From a virus, in IMG/VR virus record IMGVR_UViG_3300049571_000380, positions 128,485-192,484 of that record: a stretch of DNA of 64,000 nt, one strand, 5' to 3'. Position numbers and translations under genes: made by a program. A model generated the notes under the pieces. That model ran no database searches and was not told the DNA's origin. It saw nothing but the letters and a program-made list of their open reading frames with translations. This document shows positions 7,096 through 50,435 of this stretch, piece after piece; the stretch's first letter is position 1; every line of letters starts with the position of its first letter.

Positions 7096-7465
7096 GCAGG
7101 CTGCGATCGAGCAGTTCGGCCACCTGGCGCAGCGTCTCGGTGGAGTACCGGTCCAGGCCGTCTTTCCCGTGGCCGACGATCCGGGCTTCGATCCCCAGAT
7201 CGCGCAGACGGGACTTCACGCTCGCCCGGATCTGCTCATTGGCTACCTCGGTCAGCGTCTTGAAGTACTGGTGGTAGGCGCCCTGCTGGGCAGACCGGTC
7301 CTCCTTGCTGAAGGGGACCGGCTTGAAACCGTAGGCCGACTCGATGAAGATCCGCTTCGTGCCAATGCTCGTGACGGCCAGCTCGCGCTGACTGTTTCCG
7401 TCGAACACGACAACCTTGCTTCCGACCGTCAGAACCTCTCCGCCGGTCTCGAACGAATTCGCCAT
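7067..7465 (-). CDS. Hypothetical protein
   Basis: GGAGAG RBS; its own upstream promoter/operator region. Confidence 0.75.
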   Translation of the reverse strand: MANSFETGGEVLTVGSKVVVFDGNSQRELAVTSIGTKRIFIESAYGFKPVPFSKEDRSAQQGAYHQYFKTLTEVANEQIRASVKSRLRDLGIEARIVGHGKDGLDRYSTETLRQVAELLDRSLLNAEEFQRG

Positions 7466-49345: not shown

Positions 49346-49422
49346 GGCCCTGTAGCTCAGTTCGCGTAAGAGCGCTCGCCTGAAAAGCGAGAGGTTCGCC
49401 GGTTCGAATCCGGCCGGGGCCA
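49346..49422 (+). tRNA. tRNA-Phe(GAA)
   Basis: CTCGC CT GAA AA GCGAG; the D loop has GCG instead of GG. Confidence 0.9.
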
Positions 49423-49536
49423 CTGGCCGGACGGTAAGCTATCGACGCAGCCCCACTGTGGCGGGTGGGACATACATGCGAAGATAGCCCATGCGTGGAA
49501 GCATTGCCGTCCGGTTGCCGACAATTTCATAATCGA

Positions 49537-49608
49537 TCGCCCGTAGTTTAACTGGCAAAACTCCGGCCTCTGGAGTCGGCGTTCTTGGTTCAAATCCAGG
49601 CGGGCGAG
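49537..49608 (+). tRNA. tRNA-Gln(CTG)
   Basis: CCGGC CT CTG GA GTCGG. Confidence 0.9.
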
Positions 49609-49682
49609 CTGCGTCGGACCGGCACGTTGAGTGGTCCGTAACCAGTCGGTCGCGTGCGACCGGTCCGGCGTGAACAAGTCAA

Positions 49683-50145
49683 TCCCTCGTAGCTCAGTTG
49701 GCAGAGCAATGCGAATAACAGGATAGCGCGTGAGAGTTTGCACTAAGTGCGGAAAAAGCAAAAAGCTGTCTGAGTATTACCTCAGTAAGGGAAAGCCTAG
49801 ATCTCGCTGTAAACCCTGCTTCAATGAAAGCCATGCACCGAATGTGACCGCATGGAGGAGAAGGACCAAGGCGAAACTCGTTGAGGCTCACGGAGGAAAG
49901 TGCAAAGACTGCGGTTTGGTTGGTCCGCCGTACGTTTACGAATTTGATCACAGGGATCCCTCTCGGAAATCCTTCAATGTGACGGATTCGAAAACTACCA
50001 GATCTTGGGATGCAATTTTTGCAGAGTCCCTGAAGTGTGACCTCCTTTGCGCCAACTGTCACGCAATTCGCACCCATATTCAGAGGTGCGGAGGGTGTAA
50101 ATACTGTTAATCGACAGGTCACTGGTTCGAGTCCAGTCGGGGGAG
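49683..50145 (+). pseudogene. tRNA-Asn(GTT) split by an HNH gene (5' half 49683-49708, 3' half 50104-50145)
   Basis: TCCCTCG TA GCTC AGTTGGCA GAGC A ... CT GTT AA TCGAC AGGTC ACTGG TTCGAGT CCAGT CGGGGGA G. The acceptor strands pair, but the 5' anticodon-stem strand is missing. Confidence 0.8.
49730..50110 (+). CDS. HNH endonuclease (homing-type) with an N-terminal Zn finger
   Basis: CTKC..CKPC; CKDCG, EFDHRD, LCANCH; visibly AT-richer than its flanks. Confidence 0.9.
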   Translation: MRVCTKCGKSKKLSEYYLSKGKPRSRCKPCFNESHAPNVTAWRRRTKAKLVEAHGGKCKDCGLVGPPYVYEFDHRDPSRKSFNVTDSKTTRSWDAIFAESLKCDLLCANCHAIRTHIQRCGGCKYC

Positions 50146-50334
50146 CGTGTGCCGACGACACCATGCCCTTCCGTGGTCTGAAAAACCCGGTCGGGCTCAC
50201 AGTCGGTGGTAAAGGACCGCATTGCGCAGTGCGGTCGCGCGTGCAAGGGAACTCCGAGTCAGAGCCCGGCGAACAGGGCACCCGGAAAGGCCCTGTGGAG
50301 ACGTCCAGTGCAGGTTCGATCCCTGCCTCGCGCA
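50145..50334 (+). ncRNA. Putative tRNA-like structured RNA with a T-arm and 3' acceptor strand but no canonical D or anticodon arm
   Basis: GCAGG TTCGATC CCTGC CTCGCGC A at 50310-50334; possible 5' partner GCGTGTG (50145) or GCGCGTG (about 50236); several internal hairpins. Confidence 0.45.
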
Positions 50335-50435
50335 CTCAGGAGCGACCGTGCCTGAACAGCTTGGAGGAGTGATGGACATCGTCACCGGATTCACCTAGGT
50401 CCGCGAGATTCGCGGCCCTAGGAGGATGAATTCCG

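Follow-up and report, generated by a model that had tools for sequence, protein, structure and literature searches.

The tRNA-Asn gene of a Streptomyces phage was most likely killed by an inserted HNH gene

What becomes of a phage tRNA gene once an endonuclease reading frame lies between its two halves, and is the intruder an intron that can be removed or a mobile gene that has ruined its own target? This question is raised by the window analyzed here, a stretch of 64,000 nt that corresponds to bases 128485–192484 of a 192,484-bp virus record. In DNA searches, the phage falls among Streptomyces phages; the flanks of the split gene match Kela and JustBecause at ~90%, with Quantum, Satis, Kradal and EhyElimayoE more distant. 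The gene sits in a plus-strand tRNA array with the order Trp, Pro, Thr, Met, Lys, Arg, Asp, Phe, Gln, split tRNA-Asn/HNH and Arg. Elsewhere in the window, on the minus strand (11146–11231), ARAGORN reports a tRNA beside tRNA-Ile(gat) whose type it leaves undetermined and whose ‘anticodon’ has two bases. The original prediction of a tRNA-Asn gene split by an HNH gene was borne out by alignment with Kela and Quantum. We consider it probable, at roughly 80%, that an intron-less HNH homing endonuclease gene lies in tRNA-Asn(GUU) and disrupts its own target.

The anatomy of the locus becomes apparent when the window is aligned to the uninterrupted tRNA-Asn(gtt) of Kela (L001:2885-2958) and that of Quantum (L002:2468-2542), which in both phages follows tRNA-Gln. 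The six bases TTCGAT of Kela (positions 27–32, comprising the 5′ strand of the anticodon stem and nt 32) are replaced in the window by 396 nt at 49709–50104, of which 375 are coding and 21 non-coding; the 3′ end of the insert is coding. Both tRNA fragments (Table 1) are also identical to the intact gene of Streptomyces phage JustBecause. The 3′ fragment retains the loop sequence TGTTAA, the 3′ strand of the anticodon stem (TCGAC), the variable loop, the T arm, the 3′ acceptor strand and the discriminator G. As predicted, the acceptor strands of the two halves are still complementary, with six Watson–Crick pairs and one G-U, and the open reading frame (ORF) runs through the anticodon loop as TAC TGT TAA, its stop codon TAA (50108–50110) coinciding with loop positions 36–38. 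A Shine–Dalgarno-like AGGA (49720–49723) lies 6 nt before the GTG start.

The original description of the split is correct and can be refined at the two junctions. It had the 3′ half beginning at CT-GTT-AA, where the leading C belongs to the HNH reading frame. This C at 50104 (‘C32’) is the last base of a Tyr codon conserved in the HNH family, and insert-less relatives have T32; the junction is therefore placed in the shared TGT (50105–50107), a 3-nt microhomology through which the UAA of the loop becomes the stop codon of the ORF. The strand that should pair with TCGAC had been described as absent. TTCGAT is indeed replaced; the bases TGCGA at 49710–49714, however, match TTCGA of Kela at four of five positions with a 1-nt offset (A-TGCGA after position 26), for which we estimate a chance probability of ~4%. 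The 5′ strand of the anticodon stem may thus have been mutated rather than cleanly deleted, with TGCGA as its altered remnant.

Table 1. Coordinates of features at the split gene and records in which related HNH genes accompany tRNA genes.
Feature	Location	Strand	Basis or remark
tRNA-Asn(GUU) 5′ fragment, positions 1–26 (acceptor 5′ strand, nt 8–9, D arm, nt 26)	49683..49708	+	26/26 identical to Kela
Insert leader, 21 nt	49709..49729	+	Read from sequence
HNH (His-Me finger) endonuclease gene, GTG start, 126 aa	49730..50110	+	phrog_2255 match
tRNA-Asn(GUU) 3′ fragment, positions 33–73	50105..50145	+	41/41 identical to Kela
Sigma-70-like promoter match TTGCCG-18-CATAAT	49504..49533	+	Upstream of tRNA-Gln; consensus scan only
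Kela-lineage patch around HNH insert (363 nt left, 111 nt right)	49346..50215	.	~870 bp; likely co-conversion/recombination tract
HNH upstream of tRNA-Asn, nine lineages	L009, L010/11, L012, L013, L017/L053, L021, L061, L062/63, L064		
HNH downstream of tRNA-Asn, five lineages	Gordonia phages Bachita, ClubL, Miskis; L015; L016; L018; L024/27		Spacing 4–37 nt
tRNA-Asn on both sides of HNH, one lineage	L065		
HNH inside tRNA-Asn, one lineage	Window		
HNH beside other tRNAs, five lineages	Myrna, L014, L025, L048, L066		
tRNA-Asn lying 5′ of HNH, GTTAC loop	L015:1090-1164, L016:1078-1151, L004:1394-1469, L018:1113-1184, L065:1114-1187		

Neither ARAGORN without its intron option nor the Rfam tRNA model called a tRNA at the split locus. 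Because positions 27–32 are lost or scrambled, the gene should no longer be able to give a tRNA, and a tRNA scan of the whole 192-kb genome found no other tRNA-Asn, so that the phage would depend on the tRNA-Asn of its host. A possible start of a transcript through tRNA-Gln and the split tRNA-Asn/HNH gene is suggested by the promoter-like match upstream of tRNA-Gln.

Several observations speak against an intron. Rfam searches of 4 kb at E ≤ 1 and of 711 nt at E ≤ 10 identified no intron family, whether group I, group II or other; in particular, there was no Intron_gpI match and hence no group I core (P3–P9), for which the insert also has too few non-coding bases, in agreement with the earlier statement that no room exists for such a core. 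Furthermore, the insert starts after position 26 instead of between loop nucleotides, and positions 27–32 are absent or altered. As the insert consists of leader plus ORF and no intron family was found in Rfam, the HNH gene is free-standing, outside any self-splicing intron or intein, and the insert is not an intron. In its intron mode, ARAGORN returned a tRNA-Ser(aga) with a 373-nt intron, which we rejected as a forced fit with a mismatched anticodon stem and a long unpaired ‘variable arm’.

The encoded protein comprises an N-terminal CxxC...CxxC zinc ribbon and an HNH core. PHROGs assigned it to phrog_2255 (E = 1.8e-31) and phrog_3106 (7.7e-27), both named ‘HNH endonuclease’, while Pfam, searched at E ≤ 1, returned no HNH model, its one match being a weak one to DUF7685 on the zinc ribbon. 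In an alignment of 13 sequences (A3; the window protein and 12 relatives), all 31 invariant columns are kept, including H74 (FDH), C58/C61, C107, C110, H111, H116 and C120/C123/C126; N109 of the motif C107-A-N-C110-H111 was read from the sequence and lies outside the invariant columns. The AlphaFold model is of high confidence, with a pLDDT of 87.7. Its best Foldseek matches in the PDB were all HNH enzymes (Cap5, T4 endonuclease VII, PacI and Gme HNH) at weak scores (E ~0.05, TM ~0.33), and a PDB sequence search with the protein gave no match. Some relatives terminate exactly at the same final ...Y-C, so that the ORF is not truncated. The reading frame is intact, and the gene looks functional. 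Its composition is foreign, with a GC content of ~0.50 versus 0.58–0.65 in the flanks.

The original prediction had proposed a search for relatives with an undisturbed allele. Eight related records with an uninterrupted tRNA-Asn were found: Kela, JustBecause, Quantum, Satis, Kradal, EhyElimayoE and the two Kela-type metagenome records L050 and L051. The insert is thus polymorphic, present or absent at one locus among close relatives. A second proposal, to compare the tRNA halves across other HNH-containing alleles, yielded nothing to compare: viral contigs, searched with both junction patterns and by a protein-based locus search, contained no further HNH-bearing allele, and the 3′-half pattern of the tRNA retrieved nothing but uninterrupted genes from metagenomes. 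Only one HNH-bearing allele is known.

The insert lies in the middle of a patch of Kela-lineage sequence (Table 1), set in a genome that has otherwise diverged from that lineage. Within it, the window differs from Kela at six of 474 nt, with all six differences in the 363 nt to the left (49346–49708) and none in the 111 nt to the right (50105–50215), which include 70 identical nucleotides after the 3′ fragment (50146–50215). Outside, the 155 nt adjoining on the left contain 30 differences, and beyond the right end roughly every fifth position differs. A four-way alignment revealed the same boundary in the non-tRNA spacers, which are 96–100% identical to the Kela lineage inside 49346–50215 and 76–79% outside; Kela, L050 and L051 are 97–100% alike across the region covered by all three. 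This pattern of flanking markers is consistent with co-conversion during homing, and ordinary mosaic recombination could also be its source. Arrival in a Kela-lineage patch, as a recent event, accounts for the lack of decay in the tRNA halves. The stretch that follows the split gene (50146–50340) ends in a T-arm-like GCAGG-TTCGATC-CCTGC plus CTCGCGCA, and neither a tRNA nor an Rfam family is called there. Kela, L050 and L051, which lack the HNH gene, have this stretch as well, and its identity to the Kela lineage is 97–100% until 50215 and ~76% thereafter.

To place the protein in a wider context, relatives with 43–63% identity were drawn from records of phages, from viral contigs and metagenomes and from genomes, and tRNAs were sought in the sequence on either side of them. 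Of 8,000 candidates scored, 7,494 were homologues at E ≤ 1e-6. Members of the clade lie directly beside tRNA-Asn(gtt) in 16 lineages, the window counted, versus other tRNAs in five, and a few have no tRNA nearby. In the nine lineages with HNH upstream, the ORF ends at points ranging from 13 nt before the tRNA to 46 nt inside it. The protein tree is poorly resolved (one of 19 branches starred) and was used for two supported sister pairs only. One pairs L016, with HNH downstream of the tRNA, with L021, with HNH upstream (93/83); the other comprises L004 and L012 in a three-row fork drawn open (86/91). Since sister lineages occupy opposite sides of the tRNA, the side has probably been switched more than once.

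Several relatives of the HNH gene are unannotated in their deposited records, namely in the Gordonia phages Miskis (L005:1477-1806) and ClubL (7174-7434) and in Mycobacterium phage Myrna (L003:1528-1833), where the gene lies between tRNA-Lys and tRNA-Gly and has its stop in the D-arm region of tRNA-Gly. HNH genes unrelated to the clade also overlap the 5′ ends of tRNAs: in the Gordonia phage WilliamBoone (L059:758-1285), one extends 54 nt into tRNA-Ser, and in the Gordonia phage Smoothie (L060:2013-2504), another extends 10 nt into tRNA-Asn. Nuclease ORFs that end inside tRNAs thus seem common in actinophage tRNA arrays. Because the family at the Smoothie tRNA-Asn is unrelated, the association described above may partly reflect tRNA arrays as general safe harbors, and tRNA-Asn, or tRNA arrays generally, may attract several nuclease families. 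It also counts against the homing reading that most relatives adjoin an intact tRNA-Asn rather than interrupt one and would have to spare their own genome from cutting; the target of the HNH enzyme could lie elsewhere than in tRNA-Asn.

In three lineages, orphan pieces of tRNA-Asn were found on the far side of the HNH gene, each with p < 0.001 against shuffles. In L012, positions 1–18 (17/18 identical) stand 13 nt ahead of the HNH start codon, with a whole tRNA-Asn behind the ORF. In L024/L027, the order is whole tRNA-Asn, HNH and an orphan of positions ~27–75 (anticodon hairpin, T arm and the same 3′ acceptor strand); the HNH stop codon TAG lies in the orphan loop, CTGTT-TAG, a geometry as in the window. 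L018 has a diverged second tRNA with a shared acceptor stem. Orphan pieces were borderline in L009, L016 and L021 (p ~0.01–0.07) and not significant in L004, L010, L013, L015, L017, L061, L062 and L064. At the edge of its contig, L019 carries TCCCTTGTAGCTCAGC (L019:4-19), which corresponds to tRNA positions 1–16 and is close to the 5′ end of the window tRNA-Asn, followed by a leader and an HNH gene with a degraded C-terminal cysteine motif; this may be a second case of a 5′ fragment followed by HNH. Two further structures were noted directly behind HNH genes. L016 has a ‘minihelix’ (L016:1483-1530) immediately after the HNH stop, with a 7-bp acceptor-like stem, a 9-nt linker, the T-arm-like hairpin CTGAGG-TTCAACT-CCTCAG and no D or anticodon arm, which may be a remnant of another tRNA. 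In L020 (L020:1534-1620), tandem ~18-nt units (GTCGGCCACTTCCCCTTG) extend from the HNH stop codon onward.

The anticodon loops also differ with position. In the nine lineages read, tRNA-Asn copies 5′ of HNH have loops ending in GTTAC (C38), or GTTAG in L024/L027, versus the canonical CTGTTAA in the 3′ copies. L065 has one tRNA-Asn of the GTTAC type and one canonical copy around a single HNH gene, and in L015 and L016 the loop reads CCGTTAC, with C33 in place of the near-universal U33. The GTTAC loops might mark alleles immune to cleavage. The two tRNA-Ile genes that flank HNH in L014 were considered as recent duplicates and rejected, being identical at 47 of 76 positions.

These arrangements suggest a broader reading, which we regard as doubtful: the whole clade would be a mobile cassette specialized on tRNA-Asn, which inserts into the gene or next to it and as a rule supplies or restores a functional tRNA-Asn, so that the orphan pieces would be scars and the window a ‘bare’ state. 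Here, the nuclease may have become fused to the anticodon loop at the price of the tRNA, with the paired ends serving as an RNase P/Z handle for the mRNA. HNH-less relatives of L024/L027, sought for evidence on whether the cassette brings a replacement tRNA part, were not found.

The same material bears on a two-step origin of the split gene, which we judge unlikely. An arrangement of orphan positions 1–26, HNH and a whole tRNA (positions 1–76) would have come first, and two ACTGT repeats, one at the end of HNH and the other in the anticodon loop, would then have mediated a deletion of the stop codon, the spacer and tRNA positions 1–35. The order orphan, HNH, whole tRNA does occur in L012. In addition, the closest full-length relative, L061, ends in TAC TGT GAA TGA only 3 nt before a tRNA-Asn with the loop ACTGTTAA, so that the repeat needed for the deletion exists, and the window junction falls in TGT. 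A single illegitimate insertion, however, would lead to an identical result; the two halves and the two flanks are all Kela-type, and no intermediate is known in this phage group. The choice between these origins alters the history of the locus and not its present function.

Less probable still is a new role for the tRNA halves. RNase P and 3′-end enzymes would release an RNA of ~463 nt whose paired ends stabilize the HNH mRNA or time its translation, and pairing of 49712–49721 with 50104–50113 would partly hide the ribosome-binding site. Those two segments are complementary at nine of ten positions, and the Shine–Dalgarno-like AGGA overlaps the 5′ pairing arm. The acceptor stem and D arm are present in the minimum free energy (MFE) fold of 49683–50145; in both the MFE and the centroid fold, acceptor stem, D arm and T arm are retained and the leader is drawn as pairing with the loop region, with z = −3.0 versus shuffles. 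For SegB and the T5 enzymes, it has been proposed that expression of the endonuclease is coupled to processing of the tRNAs (PMC2330249), and many relatives of the HNH gene have their stop codon inside the next tRNA. The leader–loop inverted repeat was nonetheless rejected as evidence, since a match as good occurs in 2% of shuffles, 8% of interior windows and 17% of genomic windows and is thus not beyond chance; the intact halves are explained by a recent event, and no second HNH-bearing allele was found.

The weakest alternative, that the insert (intron or other) is removed and a working tRNA-Asn is restored by splicing or by cutting and ligation with TGCGA (49710–49714) as a weak stem strand, can draw on the four-of-five match to TTCGA (three of five possible stem pairs, compared with four of five in Kela), on bacterial tRNA-Asn genes split by HNH-carrying group I introns (Williams 2020) and on the ARAGORN intron-mode call, but is highly improbable in view of the missing group I/II signal, the scarce non-coding sequence and coding 3′ end, the forced nature of that call, the position of known tRNA introns inside the anticodon loop and with a core, and a spliced product that would have one base too many at position 26 and be mismatched at two places in the stem.

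We therefore return to the intron-less homing endonuclease that invaded and inactivated its target tRNA, as originally proposed. Six results support this reading: the lack of an intron core, the mere 21 non-coding nucleotides, the insert polymorphism, the Kela patch, the linkage to tRNA-Asn and the lack of a second tRNA-Asn. Recombination with a Kela-like donor would have brought in the HNH gene along with ~0.5 kb of donor DNA on its flanks. What we infer beyond this concerns its expression, cleavage specificity, homing and immunity. The enzyme is probably made from the tRNA-array transcript and, in mixed infections, would cut the intact tRNA-Asn region of relatives that lack HNH. Repair off the HNH-bearing genome would then copy the gene with its flanks, and the split allele would be immune as its own site is broken. 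The cost would be the only tRNA-Asn of the phage.

Homing endonucleases in phage tRNA clusters, and intron-borne ones in tRNA genes, are already known. In the literature searched, we found no description of an intron-less HNH gene inside a tRNA gene and no account of an HNH clade tied to tRNA-Asn with orphan pieces, stop codons in tRNA loops and unusual loops in the 5′ copies. Phage tRNA arrays are now viewed as a counter-defense against host anticodon nucleases, and homing endonucleases that reside in such arrays are able to reshape them. SegB, for example, promotes amplification of anti-defense loci including tRNA genes (PMC13096335). With the HNH-split gene described here and the intact one in Kela and JustBecause, a defined natural allele pair exists in cultivable Streptomyces phages, which allows one to ask whether the HNH enzyme homes on a tRNA gene, what site it recognizes and what the loss of a phage tRNA costs. 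The data also carry a warning for annotation: nuclease genes of this kind lack annotation in several deposited genomes, and tRNA finders do not see the split tRNA.

Among known systems, integrative elements target tRNA genes and restore the disrupted gene from a copy of the tRNA end that they bring along. Their attL/attR topology resembles L012, L024/L027, L018 and L065, where HNH lies between a whole tRNA-Asn and either an orphan piece or a second copy. In contrast to such elements, there is no integrase here, the mechanism would be break repair or illegitimate recombination, and the window has no rebuilt tRNA copy. The group I introns of bacterial tRNA-Asn genes are similar in that an endonuclease gene interrupts the tRNA near the anticodon and in that tRNA-Asn(GUU) is a recurrent host (Williams 2020). 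They have a self-splicing core, lie between loop nucleotides and leave complete exons, whereas in our insert, which the ORF fills, no core was detected, and tRNA positions 27–32 have been lost or altered by mutation.

Comparable, too, are the free-standing endonuclease ORFs that phages carry in their tRNA clusters or beside conserved genes, such as those of T5 and T4 mobE (PMC2790892), for which low, processing-linked expression has been proposed; the T5 ORFs are placed in the tRNA gene cluster and, in the available portion of the source, are not described as inside a tRNA gene (PMC2330249). The closest known system is T4 SegB, also an intron-less endonuclease gene among phage tRNA genes. SegB is described as a free-standing GIY-YIG homing endonuclease in a tRNA gene cluster, with a site that includes a conserved tRNA T-arm motif; it promotes transmission of its own gene together with neighboring markers, and processing of the tRNA cuts the stop codon off the ORF (PMC2330249). 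Possible parallels are the tRNA motif in the site, the co-inherited markers of the flanking tRNA region, the ORF end abutting a tRNA and the possible limitation of expression by processing (PMC2330249). Unlike SegB, which is a GIY-YIG enzyme encoded between whole tRNA genes, the enzyme described here is an HNH endonuclease by sequence, and its gene lies inside a tRNA gene, most likely destroying the tRNA.
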